Positions 21,851 through 52,093 of a stretch of 64,000 nt of DNA are shown one piece after another. The DNA lies in IMG/VR virus record IMGVR_UViG_3300033064_003431, positions 1,124 to 65,123 of that record, one strand, 5' to 3'. Every line of letters starts with the position of its first letter. The first letter of the stretch is position 1. The notes beneath the pieces are model-generated. The model was not told where the DNA came from and searched no databases. It was given only the letters and a program-made list of their open reading frames with translations. Source of the stretch: a virus. Taxonomy: Duplodnaviria > Caudoviricetes. Position numbers and translations under genes: made by a program.

Positions 21851-21868
21851 TATATTTCTGTTCCTGTT

Positions 21869-26577: not shown

Positions 26578-26591
26578 ATGTATACCAATTG

Positions 26592-28088: not shown

Positions 28089-28114
28089 AAGTATTTCCTT
28101 GTCCTATATTATAA

Positions 28115-31100: not shown

Positions 31101-31276
31101 TTTTCCCACTCAAAAGGATCACCACTATTTAAAAGCTCATATGTGAAAGAGTTGTTGGCGCCAATAGATGATAAAACAGTATTATAGGTAGATACTGCTC
31201 CATTGAGGATCATGCTACCATTACCCGTGGTACTTGTTGTTTCTTTCACTCTGTTAGCAAAATATTTGATCGACAT
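28115..31276 (-). CDS. tail fibre/spike with YadA-head-like repeats and C-terminal intramolecular chaperone (peptidase S74)
   Basis: N-terminal ANRVKETTSTTGNG, G-x-x-N beta-roll repeats (AIGNNN, ALGYGN, AVGQSN), and C-terminal SSRRFKDRI...LKPVYY...GFIAEDI...LVNSIKEL. Confidence 0.88.
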   Translation of the reverse strand: MSIKYFANRVKETTSTTGNGSMILNGAVSTYNTVLSSIGANNSFTYELLNSGDPFEWENGVGHITNSGGITTFVRDRVIKSSNSNAKVIFSAGTKTLTTAITEDIINNGFLNVEHTGVSFSPPYMPATYILDATAANITVSLPTVDGQIDPIIMGFLLNDTTNDDQNQTDAVVLDPSGAQTISGQSTYSLSIRNDYVQIVSVPSATGWLVLDSIQDSMNAYGNDGLIQFSNSGAFSGVNGLKWDLSSSSLLVGGTGILASADIILPTGTQTVVFNEQSKDKDFRIEGSGISHLLFVDAGLGNIGINTSSPLDKLHIVHTGTVGNTGVTIHSSGLGPTVVLSNTALSGSLTNDRLGSVFFNASGLSYAKLYASADSQLTGIEQASAYIEIINNGISQTALSLRPTSTTIGINNTNTSGVIVGKDCANSGNNVLLGNTNTSTGVTNSTMIGNNHTIHSGSLSCGVVGQGHTVGGTGIFIIGGTGIALSGAIYKDNTYLVADADHYISISTTGVVSLSSKLNANTKLSILNKTPTPTSGIAQSVSLEFLNTSGVIKTGLALTSNIHQTTAGNEYSKFSANIMVGGVVKPVIQIQDNQVLIGDAGLSGINVGYGLNNSSAGGTGTIIYGQNIVSSGNTNVLIGRDIICSGTNSTIFGRANECLPSGDLGVVILGNSNSASEAFGVAIGNNNHNSGLYSVSCGSYNGAYNDYSVALGYGNTVQGTVAGGSVAVGQSNTVTTSGVDAIGFAVGLGNNIVVSGTGVAIGYQNSVKGKGGVVIGRSCAATGIDNFIVGFNCSTTTGNNNFLMGKNLNWAGSDTYLTSHTNIQFLATADIFASGANIDLHKNNTDMISLITTGINILHTGSVYISGGLGANISSTGVVAMYGNTISMTGSSLVGLSTNNLHSINISTSGINVLSSGLGHPISVSGNLLTINCQSGIQYLNRPIGVGSSLVVDTSNILRETSSSRRFKDRITDYDKGISDLVQLKPVYYNFLNQDKQLAGFIAEDIADQGLEEFVIRDENNMVKDINYMGMISLLVNSIKELHQEILLLKNRT

Positions 31277-31303: not shown

Positions 31304-34300
31304 TTAGTCTGTCACTATTGTTTTATCAAATGTTATACCTGATAATGGAAAAGCGTTCTTCAATCCTACTTCTATCGCTTGGAATATTTGTTCAGAGAAA
31401 GGTTTCAGCTTTGCTTCTAATCCATCTCCTCCATTTACATCTACTGTTATATTTATCGGAATACTTCCTGACACCTTAAAATCTATGCTTTTTGGTATAT
31501 CGGCTAAGACCGTAGCAATATTCGTCAACGAGGTACTGAGTGATCCCATATTAGTTTGTAGGAGGGTTGCTGCTGTTGTTAAGCCTGCTGTGACCCCACC
31601 TAGTCCGCTAAAAGAATCTTTAATGTTGCCTAATGATCCCAAAGCACTCGTAATAGAGGTGGCCCCATCTTTGAATGCCAGTTTAATGTCACTAAGAAAT
31701 GTTTGTGTACTCGCAGAAAAATCTCCAATATCTAACTTAACACTATTGTATACACCACTAGGGCCATCAGGACCACCACCATCGTGTAAATACTTTACCG
31801 CTCCTCCCCGGTTATAATAAGATCCCCTATTATTAATAGCTCTTAATAATGGTAGATTTTTAGCTGTTGAAGCCCTATTGACCACAAATTCCCCCGGGGT
31901 GAGCATCGCGGGTACCGTATCAGTTCCCCTAGGCTGGAAATTAATATGACTACCCTGACTAGCGTAAACGGTTCCTCCTGATGACATTTGTGTAGGTCCA
32001 AATCTGGTTGTATCAGTCTTGGCCTGGGCTAATCTACCAGTAATTTCATCTTCATCAACCTCAGCTCCCATGTCCCTAAGGTCTTTCTTTTGAGTGTTGA
32101 TCGTGTTAATAATGTTAGTATGAGCTATAGAGCCAACCTCAAGTGTCATTCTTTGAGCCATTAGCTTCTCTAGATTTATTCTCATGTTTTGTCTGAGCTT
32201 GATGTCTCTCTTGATTTGTACCAGCTGATCATCGAGCTTCTTTTGTCTTTTTGCATTCTCTCCCCACAGAGTCCATACCTGGTAGCCAACCTTAGTAGTC
32301 TCGCTTGCTGCCCCTACTGCCGCACCAGCTATTGCTCCTGGAGGACCGGCAATAATTGCTCCAACCATAGCTCCACGAGCAGTTGCTTCGTAATGAGCCA
32401 GTTGCTCATCTTCGTTTTCTGTTAGTGGTCTTCCTCTCACAAAACTTACTGCTGCGCCAGTGTCAGCTCCTCCAGAACTAGCACTCCCACTTGCGAGCCC
32501 CAAGAAAGTTCTGGTCACGGGATCCATGCCCTGAGCTTGGGCTTTTGAGTCATTATATCCATCATAAGCCCCTTGAAGCAGTGTGAGCCAAGCTCCTCCC
32601 TTACTCGCTAGACCCCCTATGAATTGAGCTCCAACCGCATTTCCTGCTATTGCTTTACCAGCAGCAATAGTCGCACCTAGACTAGTTGTTATCTCTGCCG
32701 CCCGCAGTCCTCCCTTAATCGCTGCTGTTTCTCCTGTCTCTTGTGAGTCTGATTCAATCGCGGCACCAGCTAGTTTGTATACTAACCCCGCCGCAGCATT
32801 AAATAAAGTAAGTTGTGGTATTCTGGTTTCTAGCATGCTCAATAAAGACGAGGGCAACAGGCTAGGTAATTGTAAAAGAGCTTTTGCTCCGGACTCGCCC
32901 AAATTAAGTGCAGCCATCAAAGATTGCAGGATATCGTCAGCTTTCAAAGCCTTATTTGCATTTTTACCAATTTTAGTCACAGCGTTAAATTGTTTTAAAA
33001 TACCCTCCCCACCCCCCTTCAAATAGGCCACTCCCCCATTCTCGTACCCCCGGGCCCCACCATTGATACTCTTTAACAAGGGGAGATTTTTCTGGGTGGC
33101 CTCTCGATTAACAACAAATTCCCCCGCAGTAAGCATCGCGGGCACCGTATCCGTGCCTTTGGGTGCGAAATTCACCCCATCAGAACTACTCCCACCACGA
33201 CTTCTATAAATGGGTCCACCATTCTGAGCATATTGTGGATCATATTGTGGCCACCCATATTGACTTCGTCGTGCTTCTATATTAGCATCATCTTGTTTTT
33301 TTCTCCGCTCTTTTCCATTAGGACTAGAATTAATATAAGCCTGACCATTAGCTCTTAACATAGCATCATAGTTGTATTCTCCCAAGGTTCTTCTGTATAG
33401 GACATAAGAAGATTCAAACTGAGAGCCTGAGCCCTTGTATGCTCTTAGTTGGTCATTGCCAATGTCTCCTTGGAGATCCTTGGGTCTTTTTTTACGATCT
33501 TGAGGTCTAACAGGTGGGGGTGGTCTTAAGGTCGTTTCTTTCTCCTGTGGACTTAATTGACTCTCTATGGGTGCTGCTACAATATTTTCACTACCATCCA
33601 CAAGGGGTCTACGCTGAAAGGGTATTTTCTCTTTTGCTAGAGCTCGGGTTTGTCTGATCTTCCATTCCATTTGTAGAGCTTGAGAGGTTAGTATTGCGGC
33701 TATTATAGGGTCTATTTCGGCTTTATGATTTGGGTCTTCAGCCATTTGAAGAAGTGGCAAATTTAATTGTGCTAAGGGAAAATCTATCATTTCTTGCAGA
33801 GAATCTCCGTTCATCTCGCTTAATGTCATTAGTCTTTGTGGTTTTAGACTATCTAATATAGTTCTCGTCTTTGCATTTGATCCTACTAGAGATGGTATAA
33901 AAGCATCTACGCCAGCTTTTAATTCATCTGTAAATGTGGGAGGACTAGTCGGATCTATGTCTCCCAAAAGTTTCATAACATTATCTAGACCATCTTCTTT
34001 AAACTTTATCATCTCCTGTACATAAGCTTGGAAGCCCGCTGGGTCACCGAGCATGCCAATTCCCGGCAAAGGTTTACCCTTCTCGTCCACACCGGCCGAA
34101 GCAGCTGCTCCACCCGTGACCCTAGTATCTATTCCTGTGACTCTTGTTGTGGGATTATATCTCAAATCGTTTAGCAGATCCAGTAGTGTTGGATCAAGAT
34201 CTGGATTGTTTCCGATGATCTTTTTATAATCTGCATCAACATCCCAGCCGCCCAAGCTCTCTCTACTCATCGGAAAGTAGACGTACTGTCCAAAACTGAG

Positions 34301-37300
34301 ATCATCTCCTTGTCCATTTTGTTGTCGGAATCGGTCTACAACTAGTTTATACCTTTCATAGTACTTTGCTTTTAACTCAGCTACAAATACTTCAGCCCTT
34401 GCGATAATAGCCCCATCTACCTGTTCTACATCATCATCTGGATCATCCTCCTTGCCCGTATAACCTGTCCGCATCTTTTCTTTCAATTTAGGGTCGTTCA
34501 CCTGATCTCCCCCAACATACTTAGCTCCTGTTTTAAACAAGTTTCTATCTGGAGCAAAGGGCCTTTGACGATACTTTAATCCTTTGTATATAGCTTCTTT
34601 GTAGGTGAGTTCATCATAGTATGGTATGGGGGGTGGGGCTGCTACCACTGGGGCGGGTGCTGCCACTGGCGCGGGTGCTGCCATTACCCCTGCTGCTGGC
34701 GCCACTGCTACCCCTGCTGCTGGCGCCACTGCTGCCACTGGCGCTGCTGCGGGTGCTGGCCCTGCTGCGGGTGGTACTGCTGCCCCTACTTTTGCCGCAT
34801 CGTCCCGTGCAGCCATATTCTCATAACCTTTAAGATCATCTATTGATGAGATAAGATTGGGTATATTTACCTGCCCACCCCTTATTTGAGCTATCCACTC
34901 CCTGTTAGTTAACCCCTTTCTTCCTCCATAAAGACGGTCTCCTCCGAGAGTCGGAGAGACAATCTTTTGCACACCCAACTTTTCAAACTCTCTTGGTTGG
35001 AGTGAATCTATTGCCTGGCTTATATTCTGTTTTAAGCTTGCCCACTCAACATCATCATATTGTCCAGAGGTATTCCACCCTTGCATTTTCTGCTCAAAAG
35101 CATCGCTGGTTGTTTTTTCCCAGAGAGTATGTAGGTAGCTTTCACGAGGATTATCGTTGATCGGCCAATCTTCAGGAACTAACCAATTTTCCGCCTTAGA
35201 TCCTCCTATGCGCATCGGCTCCCCACGGGACATCCAGCCAGCCGACGGGGGGGTCCAGCTAACCGTCGGGGGGGCTGCTACCTCTGGCTCGGACTTCGGA
35301 TTCAAAGCTCCTAGTCCTGTGAACATCTGCTGCATCGAGGTCCCAAGCCCTGCCGGTGTTGCTACAGATGTCATATTTGGTGGTAGAGCTGTTCCTGCGG
35401 GAGCTGTTACTGCTGGAGTTGTTACTATTGGGGTGGGTTTCGGGTTCTTAATTTTCCAATCAGTATATTCCTCTTTCGTCTGAAAACCCCCATAGTTGTC
35501 TGTTGAGAACCAAAGATTTTTTAACGGGCTTATACCAGCTTCAACAGCTGCCCCCTCAAACCTTTTTTTCCTCATGGCGATCGCCGGGTTTTGACCAAAC
35601 ACTGGAGGAATGAGTAGTCTTAGTGTTCTCCACTGCGAATCATCATAATTACCAGGAGATGATGATCCGGGAGATCTTAAAGATGGTCCGAAAGATCCCG
35701 ATCTTATTCCCACAAGATCCTGCTTTTCGAATGCTGTTGTGGTATCCTTATCCCATATATCACTATCTTTCCAAACGGAGGTATTTAACCACTGCTCTGC
35801 TGTCTCACCTCCTATTTTCAAATAAGCTACCCCACCCTTCTGATACCCCTTGGTCCCAGCTCCACTATTGATACTCTTTAGCAAGGGGAGATTTTTCTGG
35901 GTGGCCGCTCGATTGACCACAAACTCGCCCGGAGTAAGCATCGCGGGCACCGTATCAGTACCCTTGGGCTGGAAATTAATGTGACTGCCCTTGCTAAGAT
36001 ATTTTACAGCCTTCTTCGGATCCGATAATCTTTTGCGAGTTGCATCTAAGTGTCCAAACACATCGGGGATTATCTCCTCTGTGCTAGATGAGCCTTCATA
36101 ACCAGTAACGCCCTTTCCGGAATCTAGCAGACCCCCAGAAATGTCTGGCACCAGGCTAATCACAACATTTTTATACCCCATACCCATTGCGTGACTTATG
36201 ATCTTGACAAAGTCCGATATGTTATTATCAGCATTCTGTCTTGTCATGGGCTGACTAGGAAAAAGTCGTTGGATCGTGGGAATCTTTGGTTTCAACTCTC
36301 TACCGCTTTTCATCAAGTAACTATTGAGGTTTATAGACTGGTTATCGGCCTCAATCATACTCTTTGAGAATGGCCTCTGAATATCATTAAGTATACGAAT
36401 ATCATCATCTGATAAAAAAGCATCATATCCTGATGCAGACTCTTTTGGTTGTTTGGCAGCTTCTTTTCGAGCTTTGTCATTCTCCATATTCTGTGCACTA
36501 ATAGCTTTGTTCTCTTCTGTTGTTGTCTCATAAGAGTTGTCTAATTGTGCAAGTACCTTGTTCCTAGGAGACCTACTCTCCCTTTGCGTTGCTAATTGTT
36601 GTATTAAGCTTTCTGCCCCAGCCGTGTCCATCATATATGTGCGATCCAAATCTTCTGAGTCTGGCTCGATCTTGTGCCACTTAGACATCTTTGCCCTATA
36701 AATATAGCTGCTCAGAGCCTGGTTGTAGTCCATCACCTCTTTATCTTCCCTACCTGTATCAGTATAGAAACCATTATAGAGAGATAAAGCTGCGTTAATT
36801 ACGTCTTCCACAGACTGCTCCCGGTCGTCCATCTCGTACCCCCACCGTCCGAGAGGTGCAACGTCGCTTTTCAGTGGCCCATTCTTTAGTCCATACTCAA
36901 GAGGCTCAATAGAATTCACATCATGTTCTTTTTGGGAAACGAGCGTCGAGATTATATCTGGACTGCGAACATTTTGGTATTCCTTGTTTTTCGGAATGCC
37001 AGCAAAAGCATTGGGGTTAGCGTAGACATAACGACTGGGCGTTCTTTCTAAGCCAAATATTTCCTCGAGATAAAGATTTTTTGCATATATCTCTCGTTCT
37101 GCTATACCCAGTTGAATCTCTGGAGACCTCATACCTGACATATCTATTGGCTTATAAATATCCTCATATGTCTCTGGAATGATTGGTTTAGGCTTAGGTG
37201 TATATATTTCTCTCTCTTTTTTAGCAAGCTCCCTAGCGTCTTTCTCTATATCAGCGTCAGTCTCTTGTCTTTCGAGTTCGGCCAATTTACGACGAAACAG

Positions 37301-46300: not shown

Positions 46301-49300
46301 CTTAGAGTTTTTCTGTGCAACTCTTTTAGCTAAATATGTTTTAAATTCTTCTAGACCATATCCAGCGCTATTAGCAAATTGTACAATACTACTGGTCTCA
46401 TTCTTTAGACCATTCTGTTCTATAAGACCATATACTTCTTGTCCTAGTTTTTCTACCTTGCTGCCATTAGCAAACTTTTGTATCATGCCGCCACCGCTCT
46501 TATTCATACTCTGCAAGTTATTAACGCCAAGAGTTTCCACAGCCTTTTTACGAATAACAAACTCTCCCGGCTCTAACATTGCTGGCACGGTATCCCCACT
46601 ACCGCTGCCCGGTACAAATCCACCACTAGCAAACTTGTGTATCCTGCCCCCAAGATTCTTACCTACTGGAACCGGCTCTGGCTCTGCAACCGGCTCTGGC
46701 TCTGGAAATAAATATCTGGTAAATTCGCCTATTGCTTTGGCCCTGCTTTTAGAATCAATAGTTCTTTTAACTTCTGTGGGCATACTACTAGTAATACCTG
46801 GGAAAAAACTCGTAGCACGACCGCCTAACCCATTTGGATAATCTATGGCTCTAGTAGCTGTAGCATCCTCTACTATTGGGGCCCCAAACACAGCCATTGC
46901 TTGTTCTATAACAGCCCCTTCGATATTAGCTTGGCCAGTGGCCATACTCGTATTCTGAGATAATTCCGACAGACTCGGGGAGTATTGTACACCTTTCATG
47001 CCAGCTTTTCTGACTCTCTCAATAGTTTGAATATTATCGTCTACCAGAGTTTCATCGGGTTTTAAATTCTTAGACTTGTCCGCTCCATTCATTCCGGTAA
47101 TTTTATCAGCTGGAATATTTAATCCTAGCTCTGCTAATCTTTGAGCTATTAGAGCCTCATTATTTGGTGGCCTAGCTGTTGATATTCTAAGATTCTGTAA
47201 TAGTTCTGGATATTTTGTTAATTTATCTTTTAAATCAATTCCAAGAGGAGTAAGCTCTCCCTTCTTTAATGCTTCTCCTACTCTCTTGGTATCAGAATAT
47301 CCTAAAACATCAATATTACCCTTAGCGTCATAAAGATCTGCTCCTGTAACTAAAGTTTGGTCAAAATCATATACCATCTGCTGACCAGAGCTCAGGCCAC
47401 CCGTAGTGATTTCGCTCTGTAAATCAGTAGCAAGCTGCCTAACAGTGTCTGTTGAGCTAGCTTGCATTTTTTCTACCATTGGCTTAAATCTTGTTGGCAA
47501 TCCTCTTTCATGTATTACAACATCCCTACCCTGAATATCAAAGGGGCCCAAGTCCTCATCATGATCATAGGGTAATAGTCCTACCAAACCCACCTGAGTT
47601 GCCGCTGCGGTTCTCCTAGCTAATCGAGCTGCTTGAATCTCTTTATTAGAATTAAATTTTTCTAGGAAATAATCTCTAACAGCACCATACGAGGCAGCTT
47701 TGTCAGCGCTCATCGATCCATCATAATTAGCTCTCCATGTTTGTCGGACCATACCGGCCGTAATATCCACACCACTAAACTGACCGAACTTAAGATCCTC
47801 TGGCATGTTTGAACCTTGGAGCATAGAGGATATTTCTGCAGCCGTGGCTCCTAATGCAGACTTTGGTTTCCCTCCCGCTATAAACTTTGGATTCTCTGCT
47901 CCACCAGGATTTTTTGGCTTGCTTTTAGCAGCAACTATTCCTTGATCTCGCACAGACTCTCTAACAGCTCGGCTTAGGGTACCATCTGGTTGCAAACCAT
48001 AAGTCTCGGGATATCTTGCTGCCAGATTACGAAGAATACCAAATGGTTCAAAACTAGCTCTAGAATTGATCTTATCTCGACGATTACGCAACTCTTTTAC
48101 TTGATCCGCCATTGCTGCATACTCTGGGTCTGATGCTACTTTTTTGCTCTCTATTCTTTGTGGGAGAGCAGCTAACTCTTTTGTTATATCTGCTAATGAA
48201 TAGGCTTGTCTCTTCTTGGAGTGCTCTACTATTCTTGGTAGTATAGAAGACCTATTCTGTAATTGAGGAAGATATTGGCTCACAAGAGAAAACACATCTG
48301 GAGATAGTATTTTTTTCATTTCTTCCAGATCTCCACCCAGTATTGATTCTCTGGCCATGGTACCACTAACACCGCCCGTTCTGGGTATCTGTACTGGCTG
48401 ATAGCCTTTGTCTAAATATTTCTTTAAATTCTTGCCTTCGTCTGCTACCATCATGGCCAAGCTACCCTTTTCTGGGCGCACAAAACGTCTTTTTCCAGAA
48501 GGCCCCTGAGATATCTCCATAACATCTGGGAGCACAAATCCCCTATTGGTTTGTTTACTTACCATAGATCCTTTAAATGCAGCCTGAGCCGCTAACACCC
48601 TAAAATCCTGATCAAATACCGCCGTTCTCAAAGAGTGGGAATCTGCGGATGTGATACCCTCATCATTGCTAATCAACACCAAAAAGTCTTCTAGTGGTAT
48701 GCCCATTGCTATGGCTGCTGCTCTCAATGATTCATGACCAATGGTTGATGGAGATAAACTTCCATGCAATAGTGCTATTTTTTTCTTTTCTACTTCAATA
48801 TTTTCTTTACGTCTTAATTTATAGTCGCTGCTAATGCCCAGAGTCCTTAATTTGCTACCATCAATATCAGAACCAAGCATAGCTTCAAGTGGACCACTAT
48901 CTCTCTCGGCTCCAGATGTAGCACCAGGTTTTCTACCAAATAAATTCACCCCAGTAGTATCTCTTGACTCTCTTCTTCTTTTAAGCTCTGTTTGCTCTTC
49001 TTTGGTAGAAGTAGACAGTATATATATCTTATCTGACATTTTTAAATAGTCATCAAGTTTTTCTGGCGTAACGGTTGAAGTAGTATCTATAACCTCTGAG
49101 GCTAATTTAATATCTTCTGGTCTTAATATGGGGAATCTCGTGGTGCGTCTAAGTTTGGCATTATCTGAGGCTGTGCTTTGTGAACCCCCCAACATCAAAG
49201 AGCTTTTGCCCGAGCCTGCCATGCCCGCAATAGTTCTGAGTTTAGCTAAAGATCCCTCTTTTCTTGATGACGCAGCAAGCTTGGATAGATACGCTTTATA

Positions 49301-52093
49301 TGCACTTACGTCTGTGAGGTTAACGCCCTGCATAGCCGGGCCCACTACCTCTTGATTCACTGGGTCTCTGAGCACATCAGTATCTATATATCCCACTTTG
49401 CGCTCTGCTATTCCTCCTGCCATGAACTTTTGAACTTTACCACCCATATTTTTTAGGCTGGCATAAAATTCTTGCTTGTGTGAAGTTCTTGTTTTTCGGG
49501 TCCCAGACCCTATTCCAGAATAATATTCTAAATTTCCTAAATTAGGATTATCTGTACTATCACTATCAAGCAATGATTCCTCAAAATATGTACCAACTTT
49601 GTCTTCGTCAATTCTTTTTGCTAATAGTTTACCAACTAATACATGGTTCGGCACCTTGTCTGATCTAAACTTTATTTCTCCCCAGTTTCCATCGGTGACG
49701 TTTGACGAGGATTGGGAAGCAGGATTGTAAGTATCAACAGGATGTGTTGGATCTGTTGACGGTGATTTTAGAGCATATCTAGCTTTTATAACTTGTTCAT
49801 ATCCTTCTCCCCACACCTTTTCGATATTTCCATACTCTTTTCCCAAATCTTTCATTCGTGGGGTGGCCTGAGATGTGGGCCGCTGGGCTAAAAATAATTG
49901 CGTCCTACCCGGTCCTGTTTTCATGATCTGCCTAAGATCTGAAGAAATCTCCGTAGCCCTATTTTTTATGACATCTATCTCTCCACTGCTTAGTGGTGCT
50001 GGAGCAGTCTCCTTATCAATATCTATAATATCGGCCGAGGCTGTATCATCATTCTCCAAGAGGGGCAGTCCGTTATTACCTAATTTCTTTTTTCCTAGTG
50101 CTACTGCTGGTTTCTGATTTTCTGCTAGCTTATCTATTCTAAACGGCCCACCTTGTGCAAGCTTTTGAACCGCCCCACCACCTGAGTATCCCCCAACCCT
50201 AATATTCCCCCCATTACTCTTATTCATCTTATGCAAGTTACTAGCACCCAGAGTATCCACAGCCTTTTTACGAATAACAAACTCGCCCGGCTGTAACATC
50301 GCTGGCACAGTATCCCCACTACCACTGCCCGGTACAAATCCACCCCTAGCAAACGCCCGCACCCTTCCCCCACCAGATAAACCGGTACCACTAGATCTAC
50401 TACTTAAAACAGCAGTTTCTAATGACTTTAGGGCCGTGGTAACACTTAATAATGCAGAAGTATTTTCTCCTAATGCCACTTGTAATCTGCTACTAGTATC
50501 TGCTGTTGCTTTTTCTTTTGCAGCAGCGGCGACCTCCTTGGTTTCTCCACCAGCAGCACCTGCGGGGTTTTTACCTAACCCACCCATAAAACCACTACCA
50601 AATTCCATCAGGGCCTTACCACCTTTGATAGCACCCAGTATAGCTAGGTATGGTAATATTGGTTTAAAAGCACCAACAATACCAATAAGTGTACTAGTAA
50701 GAGTTAGCCCCATACTAATTACATTTTGAAATGTTTTACTCTCTCCCAAAGCTCTTACCAAACCCAAGAATTCTTCTTTGGTCTTTGTAAACTGTACTGC
50801 TAGTGCAGATTGTGCTTTGGCTGCGTCGTTACCCAAACTACCAGAGCCCTTCTGTGCTACTGCTAGGGCAGCTTGTGCTGTGGCGAATTCTTGAATAAGG
50901 GGGATGACCTTACCAATTTGGCGAAATCCACCTAGCTGTTCTACTATATTACCAAATCTTAAATCTCTGGTATCTAAACCAGCTAATCCTTCACTAAGCC
51001 TTCGCACTGCCTCATATGGTCCAACGAACTTCCCCTCTAGATCTGTGAGTTCTATACCATATTCTCTCAGGGCTGCTATAGTACTTCCTCTTTGAATTCT
51101 GGTAAAAATAGTTCTAAGACCAGTAGCAATAGTTTCTGCGCTTTCACGAGTTGTGGCTCTAACGCTAGTAAAAACAGCCATAAATTCGTTTAGGGCTTGA
51201 GTACCAGAGCTAACTCCTTTACTGGCGCTAGCAAATACTCCTCCGGTACGTTGAATAGCGGTAATTATATCTGCGGATTCCACAGCAAAAGCTGCTGCTA
51301 CCGCATTAATAGATCCTAGCGCCCCCTCCAAATCTTTAGTGGCTATACCGAACTGTCTCATCGCAGCAATCGCACCTTCTGTTGTTTCTGCCATAGTATC
51401 AAAAGACGGTGCCAAAGCAGACTTGGCCAAAGCTTCAAGGGCTATTCTAGTTTCATCAGCCGATAAACCAGCTTGGGCTAATGTGGCACTCACAGTAATC
51501 AATTCAGACGAACTCACACCAAAAGTAGTAGCTAATCTTGTTACCTCATCTCCCAAACCTTTAACAGAGGCTGCTGATCCTCCTGTTACCTGCTGCAATC
51601 TTACCATTTCTCTATCAAAATTTACAAATTCCGCAAAAGCACTAGACAGAGCTCTTGAGAAACCATAGATAACTCCTGTGACAAGGCTAAAAGCAGCGAA
51701 TCTTCTAACAGCTAATGCGCTTTGTTTACCAAACTCCGCCATTTCAGAAGACGCTTTACTAACTGCTGCTGCCGTAGACGCTGACTCTGTTTTTATCTTA
51801 GATATACTTTGGGCCGCTTGGTCGGAGGATGCCGAGACCCTGGATGAGACAGAACTAATACTGGACATTGTGCTAGATAGTTTTACGGCGTTGGAGCTGG
51901 CCTCTGTGAGCGCCACACTTAGCGCCTGAACGCTCGCTGTGACTCCTCGAATATTATTAGCAGCGTTATTAGAAATAGATATTTTAAGATCTGTTTTAAT
52001 AGCAGATAACTCTCTGCGTATATCTGCAACCACGGTTTTTAGATTCGCCGGGCCCTGTATGTTTATTTGTGCTGTTAAATTAAAAGCTGCCAT
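31304..52093 (-). CDS. giant (6929 aa) tail tape measure protein carrying multiple enzymatic cargo domains
   Basis: The N-terminal ~500 aa is a TP901-type tape measure core (FDREMVRLQQVTG...LATTFGVSS.E...LAQAG...SAETIATGLRTIFTRI). It lies after tail tube and chaperone genes, has nine DTVPAMLxxGEFV modules, and has an AGGAG RBS. Confidence 0.93.
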   Translation of the reverse strand: MAAFNLTAQINIQGPANLKTVVADIRRELSAIKTDLKISISNNAANNIRGVTASVQALSVALTEASSNAVKLSSTMSSISSVSSRVSASSDQAAQSISKIKTESASTAAAVSKASSEMAEFGKQSALAVRRFAAFSLVTGVIYGFSRALSSAFAEFVNFDREMVRLQQVTGGSAASVKGLGDEVTRLATTFGVSSSELITVSATLAQAGLSADETRIALEALAKSALAPSFDTMAETTEGAIAAMRQFGIATKDLEGALGSINAVAAAFAVESADIITAIQRTGGVFASASKGVSSGTQALNEFMAVFTSVRATTRESAETIATGLRTIFTRIQRGSTIAALREYGIELTDLEGKFVGPYEAVRRLSEGLAGLDTRDLRFGNIVEQLGGFRQIGKVIPLIQEFATAQAALAVAQKGSGSLGNDAAKAQSALAVQFTKTKEEFLGLVRALGESKTFQNVISMGLTLTSTLIGIVGAFKPILPYLAILGAIKGGKALMEFGSGFMGGLGKNPAGAAGGETKEVAAAAKEKATADTSSRLQVALGENTSALLSVTTALKSLETAVLSSRSSGTGLSGGGRVRAFARGGFVPGSGSGDTVPAMLQPGEFVIRKKAVDTLGASNLHKMNKSNGGNIRVGGYSGGGAVQKLAQGGPFRIDKLAENQKPAVALGKKKLGNNGLPLLENDDTASADIIDIDKETAPAPLSSGEIDVIKNRATEISSDLRQIMKTGPGRTQLFLAQRPTSQATPRMKDLGKEYGNIEKVWGEGYEQVIKARYALKSPSTDPTHPVDTYNPASQSSSNVTDGNWGEIKFRSDKVPNHVLVGKLLAKRIDEDKVGTYFEESLLDSDSTDNPNLGNLEYYSGIGSGTRKTRTSHKQEFYASLKNMGGKVQKFMAGGIAERKVGYIDTDVLRDPVNQEVVGPAMQGVNLTDVSAYKAYLSKLAASSRKEGSLAKLRTIAGMAGSGKSSLMLGGSQSTASDNAKLRRTTRFPILRPEDIKLASEVIDTTSTVTPEKLDDYLKMSDKIYILSTSTKEEQTELKRRRESRDTTGVNLFGRKPGATSGAERDSGPLEAMLGSDIDGSKLRTLGISSDYKLRRKENIEVEKKKIALLHGSLSPSTIGHESLRAAAIAMGIPLEDFLVLISNDEGITSADSHSLRTAVFDQDFRVLAAQAAFKGSMVSKQTNRGFVLPDVMEISQGPSGKRRFVRPEKGSLAMMVADEGKNLKKYLDKGYQPVQIPRTGGVSGTMARESILGGDLEEMKKILSPDVFSLVSQYLPQLQNRSSILPRIVEHSKKRQAYSLADITKELAALPQRIESKKVASDPEYAAMADQVKELRNRRDKINSRASFEPFGILRNLAARYPETYGLQPDGTLSRAVRESVRDQGIVAAKSKPKNPGGAENPKFIAGGKPKSALGATAAEISSMLQGSNMPEDLKFGQFSGVDITAGMVRQTWRANYDGSMSADKAASYGAVRDYFLEKFNSNKEIQAARLARRTAAATQVGLVGLLPYDHDEDLGPFDIQGRDVVIHERGLPTRFKPMVEKMQASSTDTVRQLATDLQSEITTGGLSSGQQMVYDFDQTLVTGADLYDAKGNIDVLGYSDTKRVGEALKKGELTPLGIDLKDKLTKYPELLQNLRISTARPPNNEALIAQRLAELGLNIPADKITGMNGADKSKNLKPDETLVDDNIQTIERVRKAGMKGVQYSPSLSELSQNTSMATGQANIEGAVIEQAMAVFGAPIVEDATATRAIDYPNGLGGRATSFFPGITSSMPTEVKRTIDSKSRAKAIGEFTRYLFPEPEPVAEPEPVPVGKNLGGRIHKFASGGFVPGSGSGDTVPAMLEPGEFVIRKKAVETLGVNNLQSMNKSGGGMIQKFANGSKVEKLGQEVYGLIEQNGLKNETSSIVQFANSAGYGLEEFKTYLAKRVAQKNSKAGIKTDPKALAELLKEPSFKTSTPAQLALAAKLKGPSDAAYTPTLSPAENMLAIKRAIRGYAVGGVTEENKIKQAAKIGLTIKPGRVSAKYLPDANASGEVVADRLQELGSAPLFSVQSSSATSGYGPKLYDAVMEGVTQSGNQLVSDRHRVSASAFNVWKYYFKNRGDVNKTPLSPPSWYDGPEWFDQSKFASPDPKTWPPTTDDSWILQTGYTKSPSDINNPNMVQRLALGGLVPESVFGTGEMSFPASVKEKYTSEQMKTIQRALTDPNTMQNERVIVDDKAVQDQFNQKPLDKSAFISSFTKQISRDSLFSDMANFAKAIGIPGESLTSILPQLIDFEAPSEAEPNAFFDREAMGSFGVGATELANFGWTAQNEQDLYGYRALVKENSDKLMQTISSSSHDPKVAAELWDKEAALGLKLGEIRDLRIEAAQAARKVKQSKVKETGRGALSFSTSETSPALPNSVLYHELTHQVFNSLRTKVPESFDKYKTKVSGLFEGDNDDVANAVDALPGLNYNSADMAYGRQYKINSLFRSMVPLRGSLDAKEKESFEAMSKVRQQGEDLKQARTFKPFNPEINKALLNSKVDQTRINRMEDSGKEEFLTTLVQNIPNLDNNLNLILESTLTDLLGSAGISRQKFAKGGAASDTVPAMLTPGEFVINKKAAQSIGYSKLARMNHADKIQGFARGGVVGGVQHFAIGGEAIAQNQIRVNTAVTSMSKKDAAIVRAAMKKNSDAFDALSMQLYDAGKGTTDVVAALKSMARSISAGNTAEQSRIKALSAVAVTSATTYDNRVGAAKQHAAESEGLTGPKSRTRDTFDPSVRPDVRDADQLETTKAELKDRLVEKQASGAFDKPAKPLETSFLQKGLDTLKTKIGEVVEGLGGPMVVFGLITTAAGNAIASMIDEVTAAQPAMAGMIQAMKDVGPAMLGTQKLAAQAGLGKTGQGVAMATTAITQGVSSYVSGADTQAAKNSAARMAKSGESFDKEAAKVSGPELKLAPGESVNDVMNKMRDNLGAMASEIGTPLENSTLLLSTQFKNAADAAGSFVIALLTALGAMKSASGQSSGGVVYRSRGGSSSDGVNFAPKGTDTVPAMLTPGEFVINKQASSKHSSLLSSINSGKYKTGGVVYAAKGMTTAIDKGGNSNIGMFATFFSQLNKTWNPTTWGDVVTEKQDGVDKALQTVSRVAAVTAVVAGSVAVAVAAIPTAVVGGGAVAAETAAAGAGATTVAAEASAAASTTAAAATTSWTARILASVGSLLTLKFALGGVAGTLAAVSSWRGSSSLSETQQQNIRNSPQLLDRETKMAGIRTEIYGDTNDIRSTVKAGEKLTGRAREIYYSGQGMPLEEGAIRTQSRMLTKEGKNKYEIDIKEEDNLKKVLEKARKEDAEYNTANPTQPKRDRAGKLEKDAKSRLDQEAYITAETAQPNRIDETDIQKTERMAKETNMVFGEGADEKYQKAQAKQQQDTTNGTSTLTDAENELIQTTERVVESVRVEKAERNAAILATTNANRKLKELNNETDRFVAQMTALSNSISRASKEMGISIAMTRNRVGTKAGEEGTFTVDRTNEAVLGNVGAYSATEVRAAATQTGNQAGMPPEVSNALADSAVANQILVHQLPKIMADAAANPGLSDPDDEIEQKLTEAFKAANLSDPTKASERVASVMDTIKQARGSGAADTSIAGINKMAEMVAATTESAAGLKVLQEQARALNDALEAMTGEAIKASGAFGKAQEYRNTAQNIRTEGANSLAKAQGKNVSLDQQSKPLNDIIASLTNTPTLGGGSTTDAAEIGRRLDRLDDDLPKAQTQMRDAVAADAKAGIEPGKGGAGDKATDRFVGLKKESDNLAKALGKLATDTTRASSALSRIQDLEMSYKGPQDKMLELMTNIDNPEYQNNVINQANSLDRVMRGTASRSDFKDAVEGQKYRELSMTSEEAKASRLEFATRGAEGLSKETNGQITPEAILKIFRYNNEGDTRMEEATAKFIEATERQAKANDITAGRFDAAGIAFKAGVVSAGLDFYNKVQEAAQLIADVNQADKAAKQGRDDARDAQNTTPPDAEKMAAAAEAQSKAAAEQVRAAAAQAQAAEAQKQAAAAAAAAPPRQWSFGMGYANGGPIYASKGSYINFQPKGTDTVPAMLTPGEFVVNRAATQKNLPLLKNINSGTQEFSNGGIVYAEGGMKIPKLPNARTKNDQQSPGAFNKVTAWLSDWIGWSKSPDQGNMLEQFQATLGGFAQSLLPAVLGTVGSIVGGTIGSLAVPPFGTVVGAIGGGMSGVKLGEYLNSVIYDSFENTALIQDFQKAMNENPRSALVGDVVGGIASVATAGVGKVGGKTIEQLIKTGTATLTKNMASSTLSRSGATAGSQLGEAMTAIITKMDNVVAASSSSAVPGIIKRARQTIIEYGKDKTKDSAINMSMSTIFGPEQYSSGGVVYASNGALINFQPRGTDTVPAMLTPGEFVVNRAATQKNLPLLKSINGGAQGYENGGVVYLKSGGVPQRKNRKEFDKSGRFVRDLGPDYTTLDIMGEEFPQEMKWGIAANLWNDLSSITGQPKNQDMKYLNELANGGGLGSFFSVKFAQMFRNIHSIIKNQRETSLPYKRSEDLMTHFLRPYIGEFNYRDKTNNKNLEGLDFTTMLSQTPQIFAAIDSHLGLEAFGDTQYRFKDPKRKIQAQGNATNIIKNLTPDIDNILELVKIRDMNKTQERSLFGQEEGSTRNGRSNENLRVPITNTVRRWVKKQAQPSEKRAREQLALDKRESPREYKDGTLENKGLREQQSANEVRTDQIVRDLYSNKKTKDVDGFLKWIRTPGEATTIADDFAKINTWEKTPGIINIPGNMIEQMSLIAQANLSPTQRALFETRSQRDADITEQAVNTTEVKDVLHRQNILQSLIGVRKQGILQTPGMTNVLNESSDAKSDGQRQLQEQGRKGEVYKESRGDITNLVKQGLGYEGAQGSGLTPAERKEWERKRNQLLARPVGSTVPVRLGPSDPSGSTEPLFRRKLAELERQETDADIEKDARELAKKEREIYTPKPKPIIPETYEDIYKPIDMSGMRSPEIQLGIAEREIYAKNLYLEEIFGLERTPSRYVYANPNAFAGIPKNKEYQNVRSPDIISTLVSQKEHDVNSIEPLEYGLKNGPLKSDVAPLGRWGYEMDDREQSVEDVINAALSLYNGFYTDTGREDKEVMDYNQALSSYIYRAKMSKWHKIEPDSEDLDRTYMMDTAGAESLIQQLATQRESRSPRNKVLAQLDNSYETTTEENKAISAQNMENDKARKEAAKQPKESASGYDAFLSDDDIRILNDIQRPFSKSMIEADNQSINLNSYLMKSGRELKPKIPTIQRLFPSQPMTRQNADNNISDFVKIISHAMGMGYKNVVISLVPDISGGLLDSGKGVTGYEGSSSTEEIIPDVFGHLDATRKRLSDPKKAVKYLSKGSHINFQPKGTDTVPAMLTPGEFVVNRAATQKNLPLLKSINSGAGTKGYQKGGVAYLKIGGETAEQWLNTSVWKDSDIWDKDTTTAFEKQDLVGIRSGSFGPSLRSPGSSSPGNYDDSQWRTLRLLIPPVFGQNPAIAMRKKRFEGAAVEAGISPLKNLWFSTDNYGGFQTKEEYTDWKIKNPKPTPIVTTPAVTAPAGTALPPNMTSVATPAGLGTSMQQMFTGLGALNPKSEPEVAAPPTVSWTPPSAGWMSRGEPMRIGGSKAENWLVPEDWPINDNPRESYLHTLWEKTTSDAFEQKMQGWNTSGQYDDVEWASLKQNISQAIDSLQPREFEKLGVQKIVSPTLGGDRLYGGRKGLTNREWIAQIRGGQVNIPNLISSIDDLKGYENMAARDDAAKVGAAVPPAAGPAPAAAPVAAVAPAAGVAVAPAAGVMAAPAPVAAPAPVVAAPPPIPYYDELTYKEAIYKGLKYRQRPFAPDRNLFKTGAKYVGGDQVNDPKLKEKMRTGYTGKEDDPDDDVEQVDGAIIARAEVFVAELKAKYYERYKLVVDRFRQQNGQGDDLSFGQYVYFPMSRESLGGWDVDADYKKIIGNNPDLDPTLLDLLNDLRYNPTTRVTGIDTRVTGGAAASAGVDEKGKPLPGIGMLGDPAGFQAYVQEMIKFKEDGLDNVMKLLGDIDPTSPPTFTDELKAGVDAFIPSLVGSNAKTRTILDSLKPQRLMTLSEMNGDSLQEMIDFPLAQLNLPLLQMAEDPNHKAEIDPIIAAILTSQALQMEWKIRQTRALAKEKIPFQRRPLVDGSENIVAAPIESQLSPQEKETTLRPPPPVRPQDRKKRPKDLQGDIGNDQLRAYKGSGSQFESSYVLYRRTLGEYNYDAMLRANGQAYINSSPNGKERRKKQDDANIEARRSQYGWPQYDPQYAQNGGPIYRSRGGSSSDGVNFAPKGTDTVPAMLTAGEFVVNREATQKNLPLLKSINGGARGYENGGVAYLKGGGEGILKQFNAVTKIGKNANKALKADDILQSLMAALNLGESGAKALLQLPSLLPSSLLSMLETRIPQLTLFNAAAGLVYKLAGAAIESDSQETGETAAIKGGLRAAEITTSLGATIAAGKAIAGNAVGAQFIGGLASKGGAWLTLLQGAYDGYNDSKAQAQGMDPVTRTFLGLASGSASSGGADTGAAVSFVRGRPLTENEDEQLAHYEATARGAMVGAIIAGPPGAIAGAAVGAASETTKVGYQVWTLWGENAKRQKKLDDQLVQIKRDIKLRQNMRINLEKLMAQRMTLEVGSIAHTNIINTINTQKKDLRDMGAEVDEDEITGRLAQAKTDTTRFGPTQMSSGGTVYASQGSHINFQPRGTDTVPAMLTPGEFVVNRASTAKNLPLLRAINNRGSYYNRGGAVKYLHDGGGPDGPSGVYNSVKLDIGDFSASTQTFLSDIKLAFKDGATSITSALGSLGNIKDSFSGLGGVTAGLTTAATLLQTNMGSLSTSLTNIATVLADIPKSIDFKVSGSIPINITVDVNGGDGLEAKLKPFSEQIFQAIEVGLKNAFPLSGITFDKTIVTD
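31772..31988 (-). repeat. TMP linker module copy 9 (aa 6725)
   Basis: MSSGGTVYASQGSHINFQPRGTDTVPAMLTPGEFVVNRASTAKNLPLLRAINN...YNRGGAVKYLHDGG. Confidence 0.95.
33005..33235 (-). repeat. TMP linker module copy 8 (aa 6315)
   Basis: YAQNGGPIYRSRGGSSSDGVNFAPKGTDTVPAMLTAGEFVVNREATQKNLPLLKSINGGARGYENGGVAYLKGGG. Confidence 0.95.
34626..34800 (-). repeat. GC-rich low-complexity Ala/Pro/Val repeat within TMP
   Basis: Encodes AAVPPAAGPAPAAAPVAAVAPAAGVAVAPAAGVMAAPAPVAAPAPVVAAPPP from degenerate 18-21 bp units. Confidence 0.8.
35808..36005 (-). repeat. TMP linker module copy 7 (aa 5380)
   Basis: YLSKGSHINFQPKGTDTVPAMLTPGEFVVNRAATQKNLPLLKSINSG...YQKGGVAYLKIGG. Confidence 0.95.
38805..39015 (-). repeat. 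TMP linker module copy 6 (aa 4383)
   Basis: YSSGGVVYASNGALINFQPRGTDTVPAMLTPGEFVVNRAATQKNLPLLKSINGGAQGYENGGVVYLKSGG. Confidence 0.95.
39750..39960 (-). repeat. TMP linker module copy 5 (aa 4069)
   Basis: YANGGPIYASKGSYINFQPKGTDTVPAMLTPGEFVVNRAATQKNLPLLKNINSG...FSNGGIVYAEGG. Confidence 0.95.
42890..43100 (-). repeat. TMP linker module copy 4 (aa 3024)
   Basis: GGVVYRSRGGSSSDGVNFAPKGTDTVPAMLTPGEFVINKQAS...INSGKYKTGGVVYA. Confidence 0.93.
44190..44385 (-). repeat. TMP linker module copy 3 (aa 2581)
   Basis: QKFAKGGAASDTVPAMLTPGEFVINKKAAQSIGYSKLARMN...FARGG...FAIGG. Confidence 0.93.
46495..46660 (-). repeat. TMP linker module copy 2 (aa 1834)
   Basis: HKFASGGFVPGSGSGDTVPAMLEPGEFVIRKKAVETLGVNNLQSMN. 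The DNA is very similar to copy 1, 3720 bp away. Confidence 0.95.
50215..50385 (-). repeat. TMP linker module copy 1 (D at aa 594)
   Basis: RAFARGGFVPGSGSGDTVPAMLQPGEFVIRKKAVDTLGASNLHKMN. Confidence 0.95.

Follow-up and report, generated by a model that had tools for sequence, protein, structure and literature searches.

The described system closest to the one reported here is gp96 of Thermus phage P23-45, a tape measure protein of 5,002 amino acids (aa) in which an active virion RNA polymerase forms the N-terminal part (PMC10770324). According to the accessible part of that report, the enzyme is used at the start of infection, metallopeptidase and transmembrane parts are present as well, and no repeated module or swapping of cassettes is described (PMC10770324). 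This is the one published precedent for an injected enzyme fused to a tape measure. Here we describe a stretch of 64,000 nucleotides (nt), hereafter the window, which is nearly the whole of the 65,123-base IMG/VR virus record IMGVR_UViG_3300033064_003431 (linear; CheckV completeness estimate 43%). On the minus strand of the window, at 31304-52093, lies a true tape measure gene of a siphophage from fresh water, so far uncultured. Its product of 6,929 aa has a TP901-type N-terminal core and a canonical C-terminal end, which enclose ruler-type sequence together with foreign globular-type cassettes, and nine copies of a conserved module punctuate the chain. We lean towards the view that this protein is the ruler for a tail of about 1 micrometre or longer and doubles as an injected carrier of several enzymes. 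In gp96 and its counterparts in P74-26, G20c and TSP4, as far as the accessible text goes, a giant tape measure, an extremely long tail and an N-proximal enzyme go together as they would here. However, gp96 has one fused enzyme, the RNA polymerase, whereas the present protein has a string of exchangeable cassettes of kinase, nucleotidyltransferase, HAD and HExxH type.

Cell-wall hydrolases embedded in tape measures have long been known, the tape measure of mycobacteriophage TM4 presumably being an example. By Pfam, the tape measure of the Brevundimonas phage Kikimora has a Phage_lysozyme domain at aa 1206-1295 in addition to one module (at about aa 2019-2062). The T5 tape measure is also cut, and the accessible text of the source gives its pb2C part as proposed to be ejected at infection and to degrade the wall (PMC12617516). 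The Kikimora and T5 enzymes act on the envelope that the tail crosses, whereas the cassettes here are of nucleotide- and phosphate-handling types with cytoplasmic-looking substrates, and they are many and exchangeable. Phage lambda gpH resembles the present protein in holding one copy of the C-terminal half of the module, inside gpHC and downstream of the cut glycine-rich region; it differs in having one copy rather than nine, a length of 853 aa, no enzyme cassettes, and an N-terminal family that is not of TP901 type. Gp16 of mycobacteriophage Douge and the tape measure of Nodularia phage vB_NpeS-2AV2 (hereafter 2AV2), both from cultured phages, have internal modules as well, but two copies only, and share nothing besides the module with the 6,929-aa protein; Pfam found no enzyme domain in the 2AV2 tape measure.

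Polyvalent proteins are giant multi-domain proteins proposed to be delivered together with the DNA and separated by built-in metallopeptidases (PMC5512222), and ADP-ribosyltransferase and GNAT domains occur among them (PMC7824862), according to the accessible portions of these papers. The present protein may resemble them in joining several enzyme cassettes in one giant chain, one of them a candidate HExxH peptidase. The term 'tape measure' has 0 mentions in the text of the first of these papers, which describes no repeated joint module (PMC5512222), and none of the hallmark domains of polyvalent proteins was detected in the 6,929-aa protein by Pfam. Sle1 and related contractile injection system effectors likewise combine a tape-measure-like scaffold in a tail-like tube with a swappable functional domain; in the accessible text, however, they belong to a bacterial nanomachine and have one functional domain per protein and no module array (PMC13277306). 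An analogy with MARTX toxins, drawn in the preliminary description of this locus, fails because a protein free of cysteine cannot hold their defining cysteine protease; Pfam also found no RTX or CPD family in it. In the literature searched, we found no description of module-delimited, combinatorial multi-enzyme tape measures.

The identity of the gene product is well founded. The open reading frame (ORF) was described earlier as single, and it does run from an ATG through 6,929 codons with zero internal stops. Two profile families recognise its N-terminus: PF10145 at aa 182-376 (E 2.7e-23; score 83.3 bits, Pfam cut-off 33.2) and TIGR01760 (tape_meas_TP901) at aa 143-483 (E 4.1e-25; score 88.5 bits, cut-off 28.8). 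It also matches four tape-measure families in PHROG, and together these results bear out the earlier TP901-type assignment. The gene stands in a tail gene block on one strand, with a major-tail-like gene upstream (59561-62557) and tail-fibre-like genes downstream (28115-31276).

31304..52093, minus strand: giant tape measure ORF, 6,929 aa, no cysteine (ORF call, translation, composition)
50414..52093, minus strand: N-terminal tape-measure core, aa 1-560, with a hydrophobic stretch at aa 457-490 (PF10145, TIGR01760, PHROG; in 118 of 120 homologues)

The nine modules were found at the residues claimed for them, with DTVPAML starting from aa 594, 1834, 2581, 3024, 4069, 4383, 5380, 6315 and 6725 and followed in every copy (9/9) by xPGEFV/I. 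All nine matches of a degenerate DNA pattern for the module core are on the coding strand, with 0 on its complement and 0 in the reversed control. The aligned module is about 85 aa long with 14 invariant positions; at the DNA level a 53-nt core is 74-85% identical between the nine copies, and over longer stretches identity falls in the range 61-85%. Besides the modules, the ORF contains a single long DNA repeat, a 24-nt tandem array, in agreement with the earlier statement that the segments between modules are mutually unrelated. Shorter phi-x-x-G-G mini-motifs also join cassettes. The modules, each identified by motif, DNA pattern and alignment, are as follows.

50147..50404, minus strand: module M1 (D594)
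46427..46684, minus strand: module M2 (D1834)
44186..44443, minus strand: module M3 (D2581)
42857..43114, minus strand: module M4 (D3024)
39722..39979, minus strand: module M5 (D4069)
38780..39037, minus strand: module M6 (D4383)
35789..36046, minus strand: module M7 (D5380)
32984..33241, minus strand: module M8 (D6315)
31754..32011, minus strand: module M9 (D6725)

The module is widespread. A deep profile of 54 sequences, searched against 1.84 billion cluster representatives, matched 26,869 of them at E<=1e-3, 8,350 at 1e-10 and 1,479 at 1e-30, and the best 150 of the 26,869 all hold 3-10 copies in proteins of 1,360-7,872 aa. Among GenBank phages it occurs in 124 records, at one place per record, with a tape-measure annotation wherever the listed records are annotated; the hosts include Gordonia (51), Mycobacterium (35), Nodularia (9) and Brevundimonas (8). 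PHROG tape-measure profiles have it about 70-120 positions ahead of their end, and the 3,404-aa tape measure of 2AV2 has two adjacent copies near aa 1008 and 1078. Against the Protein Data Bank (PDB), the deeper profile found two solved entries, Douge gp16 (1,699 aa; PDB 8ZDO), with copies at residues 973-1031 and 1413-1462 (E 1.1e-8), and lambda gpH (PDB 8IYK), with a match at residues 748-785 (E 0.0013), both of which had been missed by a profile made from the nine window copies. That smaller profile had returned only ribosomal uL24 (E 0.004), which, once gpH and Douge gp16 were found, was treated as chance or, at most, as a hint of a small beta fold. The deeper profile matched no T5 chain at E<=10, and tblastn with the module reached no Escherichia phage. 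On this distribution the module appears to be an ancient tape-measure element. A module core is also present in a 'hypothetical protein' of Prochlorococcus phage P-TIM68 (GenBank KM359505, 7774-7908; 197 kb; 60% identity over 45 aa); if this phage is a T4-like myovirus, as we take it to be, the module would extend beyond siphophage tape measures.

The relationship with gpH bears on what the module may do. According to the accessible text of the structural report, gpH is cut in a glycine-rich C-terminal region after tail assembly, both products are described in the particle, and the manner and catalyst of the cut are unknown; gpH* comprises about residues 1-710 and gpHC about 690-853, of which about 690-817 are unresolved in the structure (PMC12617516). 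The module match falls inside gpHC just beyond the estimated cut, and by arithmetic the glycine-rich N-terminal flank of the module would map to about gpH 715-747. Since a module homologue adjoins the cleaved glycine-rich region of gpH, cutting at the modules, in the manner of gpH, is a reasonable idea by analogy. A predicted trimer of the module scored 0.01, with the partner's own fold uncertain and without controls, and says nothing either way.

A search with aa 640-2570 as the query, among proteins of 3,810-12,126 aa, gave 140 matches, and the counts below cover the 120 listed. PF10145 is carried by 112 of these, and ADP-ribosyltransferase, staphylococcal-nuclease, EF-hand or SHD1 families occur in a few. 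With a hidden Markov model of the nine modules, the number of modules per protein was 0 in 1 protein, 1 in 3, 2 in 22, 3 in 5, 4 in 29, 5 in 39 (the mode), 6 in 6, 7 in 7, 8 in 7 and 9 in 1, so that 116 of 120 have at least two. In 116 of 119 proteins the first module begins between aa 430 and 740, and in 90 of 116 the last begins less than 400 aa from the C-terminus. What stands between is far less constant. The N-core is present in 118 homologues, cassette C in 91, B in 86, D2 in 56, D3 in 50 and the part at aa 3450-3850 also in 50; the C-terminal end K is present in 39, D1 in 37, A in 23, segments E, G and J in 5-7, F1 in 3, and cassettes H and I in none. When the family was cut into 120-aa tiles, 1,106 of 5,476 had no homologue in other members and only 1,159 had one in at least 60, in a search whose low-complexity filter was on and therefore undercounts ruler-type parts. 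The same N-core, at 43-63% identity, is found at 70 loci in IMG/VR; complete tape-measure ORFs at such loci measure 2,134-3,829 aa, while many others exceed the fetched DNA, and 23 complete shorter relatives of this size (2,134-3,829 aa) have the core alone in common with the 6,929-aa protein in all cases. Among GenBank phages, a megablast search with the ORF gave no match, and the N-core reaches 20-26% identity at best.

The order of cassettes also differs between relatives, C standing ahead of B in the relative L079, D3 ahead of B in L080 and L081, and D3-D1-D2 being the order in L085. [FYLM]xxGG sites flank every module core and occur free-standing at aa 894, 1996 and 2165. Ends of BLAST high-scoring segment pairs lie within 12 aa of such a site in 35.7% of 2,188 cases, against 10.3 +/- 3.3% (maximum 22.8%) in 500 random placements, a test that is partly circular because many of the sites are within modules; the ends accumulate at the free-standing sites 894, 1996 and 2165 and not at 1408. 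Judged by these alignments, the N-core and the modules are what is conserved over a large family, most other content being mosaic, with shuffled cassette order. The check proposed earlier, namely whether cargo varies on a constant scaffold, thus came out in favour of variation: order differs and coverage is patchy, and invariant colinear content was not seen.

The six cassettes between M1 and M3, counted in homologues as above, are listed below.

49424..50146, minus strand: cassette A, aa 650-890, possible PD-(D/E)xK (weak leads; 23 of 120 homologues)
47879..49411, minus strand: cassette B, aa 895-1405, predicted P-loop kinase (about 898-1098), HIGH-superfamily nucleotidyltransferase (about 1104-1285) and helical tail (AlphaFold2, fold searches, motifs)
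46664..47866, minus strand: cassette C, aa 1410-1810, HAD-type motifs DFDxT (1576-1580), TAR (1639-1641) and DD (1685-1686) (conserved motifs; PDB profile E 0.28)
46118..46456, minus strand: cassette D1, aa 1880-1992, no identity given (37 of 120 homologues)
45611..46105, minus strand: cassette D2, aa 1997-2161, possible acetyltransferase (lead only)
44414..45598, minus strand: cassette D3, aa 2166-2560, invariant HExxH (2402-2406) and distal ED..KEEF (conservation; AlphaFold2 model of low confidence)

Cassette B provides the clearest case for enzymes in this chain. Loci related to it in IMG/VR numbered 0 with a single-sequence query and 14 with a three-sequence alignment, and 10 homologues from such loci were used for an AlphaFold2 (AF2) model, which scored pLDDT 81.1 and pTM 0.75. 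Compared with VIA-align, model residues 210-385 match the NaMNAT 4rpi (Z 13.8, root-mean-square deviation 2.4, 147 aligned), 1f9a (13.1) and 4nah (13.1), and the nucleotidyltransferase domain together with the helical tail matches TmcAL (Z 10.2); residues 4-204 resemble P-loop kinases, with Z values of 8.7 for zeta toxin 6epg, 6.6 for adenylate kinase and 6.2 for AvrRxo1, which are middling for a 511-residue query. Foldseek returned NadM (E 2.7e-5, probability 1.00), many PPAT entries and T4 Pnkp (5.4e-4, probability 0.87). By sequence, the nearest solved relative is 3gmi (E 4.5e-4), which we take to be a member of the TmcAL family and to which the ISxTxxR-type motif aligns; Pfam places the associated C-terminal region in the cassette at E 1e-4, under the cut-off. 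Catalytic residues were followed in homologues at a median identity of 38-42%. In the Walker A motif GxxGxGK[ST], G957 is kept in 84 of 87, G962 in 83 and K963 in 84; in the (H/T)xGH motif, T1117 is kept in 83, G1119 in 86 and H1120 in all 87, as are S1243, T1245 and R1248 of the second, ISxTxxR-type motif. On the model and these motifs, cassette B is confidently predicted to hold an NMNAT/PPAT/TmcAL-like nucleotidyltransferase, whose substrate may be NMN, phosphopantetheine, RNA or another, preceded by a probable P-loop kinase. A word-based search, which may pass over distant relatives, found no free-standing homologues of cassette B at 281-895 aa; BFVD holds stand-alone phage cytidylyltransferase-like proteins with its nucleotidyltransferase fold.

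The other cassettes are supported to different degrees. For cassette C, the HAD motif residues are kept in most of 74 homologues (D1576 in 67, D1578 in 72, T1580 in 66, T1639 in 61, D1685 in 68, D1686 in 70); its profile reached 3cnh in the PDB at E 0.28 and Pfam matched 0 of 10 members of its alignment, so that a putative HAD phosphatase is supported at the level of motifs. In cassette D3, H2402, E2403 and H2406 are present in 51 of 51 homologues and E2529 and D2530 in 50 of 51; its AF2 model (pLDDT 48.8, all-helical) was not usable and its profile found no match in the PDB. Cassette D2 had no Pfam match and no PDB profile match; in the Atlas it lies near viral clusters without family at 0.95 and near one at 0.93, 13% of whose members are Acetyltransf_1, and a word-based search for free-standing copies gave three matches, each on a contig of 1-1.7 kb and probably a piece of a tape-measure gene. 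Cassette A gave YqaJ in Pfam at E 0.031, below the cut-off, and 0.77 to PDDEXK_14 and Hjc clusters in the Atlas, a range where matches are often chance. The GNAT (D2) and PD-(D/E)xK (A) assignments are accordingly leads only. Of the folds named in the preliminary description, the nucleotidyltransferase and, at middling scores, the kinase were recovered by AF2 and fold search, the HAD and zincin domains by motifs only, the GNAT and first PD-(D/E)xK domains as weak leads, and a second PD-(D/E)xK domain could not be located; modelling segment by segment gave two enzyme-like folds for cassette B and an uninterpretable result for D3. A PHROG search with nine cassettes matched no family. That some cassettes are enzymes is nevertheless upheld by the predicted fold of cassette B together with its conserved catalytic residues. 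In addition, an ADP-ribosyltransferase domain (PF03496; score 31.6 bits, cut-off 23.4) lies at aa 1538-1653 of the relative P0039, in the interval between the two modules of that protein.

The rest of the chain, from the third module onwards, comprises ruler-like segments, two orphan cassettes and the C-terminal end.

43124..44146, minus strand: segment E, aa 2650-2990, Ala/Gly-rich with two hydrophobic stretches (composition)
40004..42796, minus strand: segment F, aa 3100-4030, two hydrophobic stretches followed by a charged Ala-rich ruler-like part (aa 3450-3850, in 50 of 120) (composition, homologues)
39044..39706, minus strand: segment G, aa 4130-4350, glycine-zipper-like hydrophobic (composition)
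36044..38746, minus strand: cassette H, aa 4450-5350, globular-type composition, no relative found (0 of 120 homologues; no PDB, PHROG or Pfam match)
33254..35746, minus strand: cassette I, aa 5450-6280, no relative found, with the 24-nt array at 34630-34815 (homologue, repeat and database searches)
32024..32956, minus strand: segment J, aa 6380-6690, Ala/Gly-rich hydrophobic (composition)
31307..31726, minus strand: C-terminal end K, aa 6790-6929 (39 of 120 homologues, C-terminal in all)

By composition, about 2,505 aa are ruler-like (Ala/Gly-rich, hydrophobic or charged-helical) and about 3,558 aa globular-like. Cassettes H and I, 1,732 aa together, had no Pfam, PHROG or homologue match among the 120, and phmmer searches with them against the PDB gave nothing under E 0.3.

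Cysteine is absent from the whole chain (0 of 6,929 aa), whereas the 33 other ORFs of the window contain 243 in 13,958 aa (1.74%); at that rate zero has a binomial P of about 1e-53, and out-of-frame readings of the same DNA contain 123 and 363 cysteine codons. The 121 proteins of the family have 48 cysteines among 657,237 aa; 99 of them lack the residue altogether, as do the tape measures of the cultured phages Nodularia 2AV2 and Brevundimonas Kikimora. The enzyme cassettes are thus under the same constraint as the ruler sequence, which we infer to reflect a crowded lumen and unfolded passage through a narrow channel and an oxidising periplasm.

The chain also has a polarity that is kept across the family. 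The first half of the protein contains cassette A in 22 of 22 cases, B in 85 of 86, C in 66 of 69, D2 in 53 of 56 and D3 in 49 of 50. Further along come the shared helical part (aa 3450-3850 here), at about 0.64 of the protein's length, and K, which is terminal. Hydrophobic stretches (n=221), the one in the N-core apart, are mostly in the second half, with 0 in the third decile, 7 in the fourth and many later. In Douge gp16 only residues 1658-1699 are modelled, its C-terminus being in the tip and its modules in the unresolved luminal part, and residues 818-849 of lambda gpH are in the tail tip according to the accessible text (PMC12617516). Since the C-terminus of the tape measure is in the tip of solved tails, the enzyme block would lie toward the head, beside the DNA, and would leave last.

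Tail length was considered with reference to cultured giants. The accessible text on Nodularia phage 2AV2 gives a tail of 795 nm (PMC6293099), or 0.23 nm per residue for 3,404 aa, and that on P23-45 a tail of 800 nm for a 5,002-aa tape measure (preprint), or 0.16 nm per residue; the longest tail reported there is that of P74-26, at nearly 1 micrometre. Scaled from these giants, 6,929 aa would correspond to a tail of 1.0-1.6 micrometres, longer than the longest reported, whereas a tail of about 375 nm would result if only the ruler-like part measured. Because the whole tape measure seems to set the length in two cultured giants, a tail of 1 micrometre would not be unreasonable, and a reading as cargo in place of ruler is unnecessary. 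The earlier idea of the tail lumen as a magazine is supported in part, in that the tape measure contains enzyme cassettes, and the 2AV2 and P23-45 tails speak against part of it. Ruler and carrier roles are compatible, in that an unfolded enzyme segment in the lumen adds length.

The reality of the assembled gene was examined with Logan contigs of three near-identical runs, of six found, aligned to 31700-51699. A 10-kb piece is present at 0.97-1.00 in six runs from two studies (2020 and 2024, either of which may be the source), and three runs of a third study contain the same piece at 0.23-0.33; runs with small shares of the stretch were set aside when habitat was judged. The ORF is tiled at even depth by the contigs of the three near-identical runs, which show 0 differences from it (block depth about 15.7-17.6 in X1, 10-12.5 in X4 and about 7.5-9.9 in X5, outside bins inflated by relatives), and this evenness over blocks in every run points to one genome. 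M9, M8, M5, M4, M3 and M2 are each spanned by single contigs. The concern about misassembly raised earlier is thereby eased for content and stands for block order at the four unbridged places given below.

In run X7 of the third study, contigs of related strains, 90-95% alike, join module to module within 33600-50200 and omit whole cassettes; the joints are 35996>40068, 39832>44306, 44378>45615 and 49445>50189, the last amounting to the loss of cassette A. They may be a hint of natural gain and loss of cassettes at modules in related strains, at 90-95% likeness and with some short sides. The tandem array at 34630-34815, with 6 copies of 24 nt, encodes an Ala/Pro/Val/Gly-rich tract within cassette I, and in-frame insertions of 9 and 18 nt in related contigs suggest length polymorphism at this place.

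We propose that at assembly the whole chain, largely unfolded, would thread the lumen of the tail tube with its C-terminal end at the tip and set a tail of 1.0-1.6 micrometres, and that it may be cut at the modules, like gpH. At infection it would be expelled before the DNA, its C-proximal hydrophobic segments forming a channel through the envelope, and the N-proximal enzyme block, next to the DNA end, would exit last, refold in the cell and act before phage expression, in host takeover or counter-defence, for instance in nucleotide/NAD or RNA-end metabolism. Cassettes would be exchanged among phages by recombination at conserved module DNA. Several points weigh against this combined ruler and carrier. 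The packaging, cutting, ejection, refolding and biological role of the enzyme part are inferred. The lumen is 3-4 nm wide and folded enzymes do not fit, so the model requires unfolding and unaided refolding; only three to six chains would be delivered per virion. The whole chain seems to measure in cultured giants, and the enzyme part may by that analogy count mainly as length. Cassettes A, D1, D2, H and I are without an assigned fold and the D3 model failed. The match in lambda takes in only the C-terminal half of the module, 40-60 residues past an imprecise estimated cut. The homologues were chosen with aa 640-2570, so frequencies in that region, including those of cassettes B and C, are inflated. 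Finally, M7, M6, about 45.8 kb and M1 are contig ends that no listed contig spans, so block order at these places rests on the original assembly.

A bolder form of the same idea, which we hold to be possible though doubtful, makes the modules processing and register elements derived from a gpH-type cut site, by which the chain, once the tail is assembled, would become about 10 stacked proteins fired in order, with cartridges traded between phages at module DNA. Hydrophobic channel pieces would leave first, then orphan effectors, and last the kinase, nucleotidyltransferase and phosphatase set, which would restore a cofactor such as NAD or heal cleaved RNA and so disarm abortive infection before transcription. 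At the opposite extreme, the whole chain would only measure a tail of 1-1.6 micrometres, captured gene fragments being filler whose activity is irrelevant to infection or confined to the producer cell. Tail length does follow tape-measure length in the cultured giants (2AV2, P23-45), relatives with the same N-core form a continuous size range from 2,134 to more than 7,700 aa, and no family could be detected for the orphan cassettes H and I. Filler, however, would not need catalytic residues kept in 84-87 of 87, 67-72 of 74 and 51 of 51 homologues at about 40% identity, cassette B is predicted to fold as a complete two-domain enzyme, a relative (P0039) has its ADP-ribosyltransferase domain, and the fused enzyme of P23-45 is active and used at infection; we regard a ruler without further role as unlikely, and since one chain can measure and deliver, this account does not exclude the combined ruler and carrier.

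The same boundaries would also suit a late-gene polyprotein, cut at the modules in the producer cell before assembly, of which only tape-measure-like pieces enter the tail while the enzymes act late in the cytoplasm. Every cassette boundary has a module or a phi-xx-GG motif, the module family adjoins the known cleavage region of gpH, and the HExxH cassette could serve as the protease; yet D3, being present in only 50 of 120 homologues, is not the general protease, the enzyme cassettes are free of cysteine against 1.74% in cytoplasmic proteins of the same phage, and the word-based search turned up no free-standing homologue of cassette B at 281-895 aa. In addition, the accessible text on lambda has the cut following tail assembly, with both products in the particle (PMC12617516), and we give the polyprotein a slim chance. 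Least probable of all, and hardly to be expected, is that the assembly joined tape-measure genes of several phages falsely, or in the wrong order, through the repeated module. Contigs of all three aligned runs do break at modules, leaving M7, M6, about 45.8 kb and M1 unbridged among those listed; the 53-nt core is 74-85% identical over nine copies, and related strains occur in the same habitat type (run X7). Against a chimera stand the uniform depth per run and 0 differences over all blocks, the origin of the runs in two studies that differ in year (one or the other of which may be the source), the six modules (M9, M8, M5, M4, M3 and M2) bridged by single contigs, and the homologues from other samples, of which 119 of 120 have at least one module and 116 at least two, with up to 9 in a protein and up to 10 in other representatives.

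Some neighbouring genes are of separate interest. The majority of them had no match in a PHROG search. In the 998-aa ORF at 59561-62557, similarity to a PHROG of major tail proteins (E 3.1e-5) is limited to residues 61-123; the ORF is a candidate for an unusually large tube protein, perhaps with decoration domains. Downstream of the tape measure, at 17399-31276, stand five large minus-strand ORFs of 1,053, 498, 502, 1,066 and 1,483 aa, four of which are without a PHROG match; these presumably encode an undescribed kind of tip and fibre protein. At the opposite end of the contig (283-5361), a DnaE-like DNA polymerase III alpha is encoded in two ORFs (627 and 779 aa), the second of which contains an HNH endonuclease-like match, and a glycosyltransferase is also encoded at that end.

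An injected enzyme on a tape measure is already known, once, from P23-45, and what appears to be new here is the module-delimited multi-enzyme architecture and its scale. The family comprises at least 1,479 cluster representatives at E<=1e-30, the level reached by the listed multi-copy proteins. Being large, without a close cultured relative and with cassettes that have no PHROG match, it is a big reservoir of candidate early-acting phage proteins. The finding bears on the open questions of how tape measures are cut, including the catalyst in the case of lambda gpH, and of how long a phage tail can be, and the joints suggest a natural design by which phage tails could be loaded with foreign proteins. 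Should the cassettes prove to be delivered, the siphophage tail would be a device for injecting proteins, its payload open to exchange, and this would provide a route of counter-defence before phage expression that is distinct from head-packaged internal proteins.

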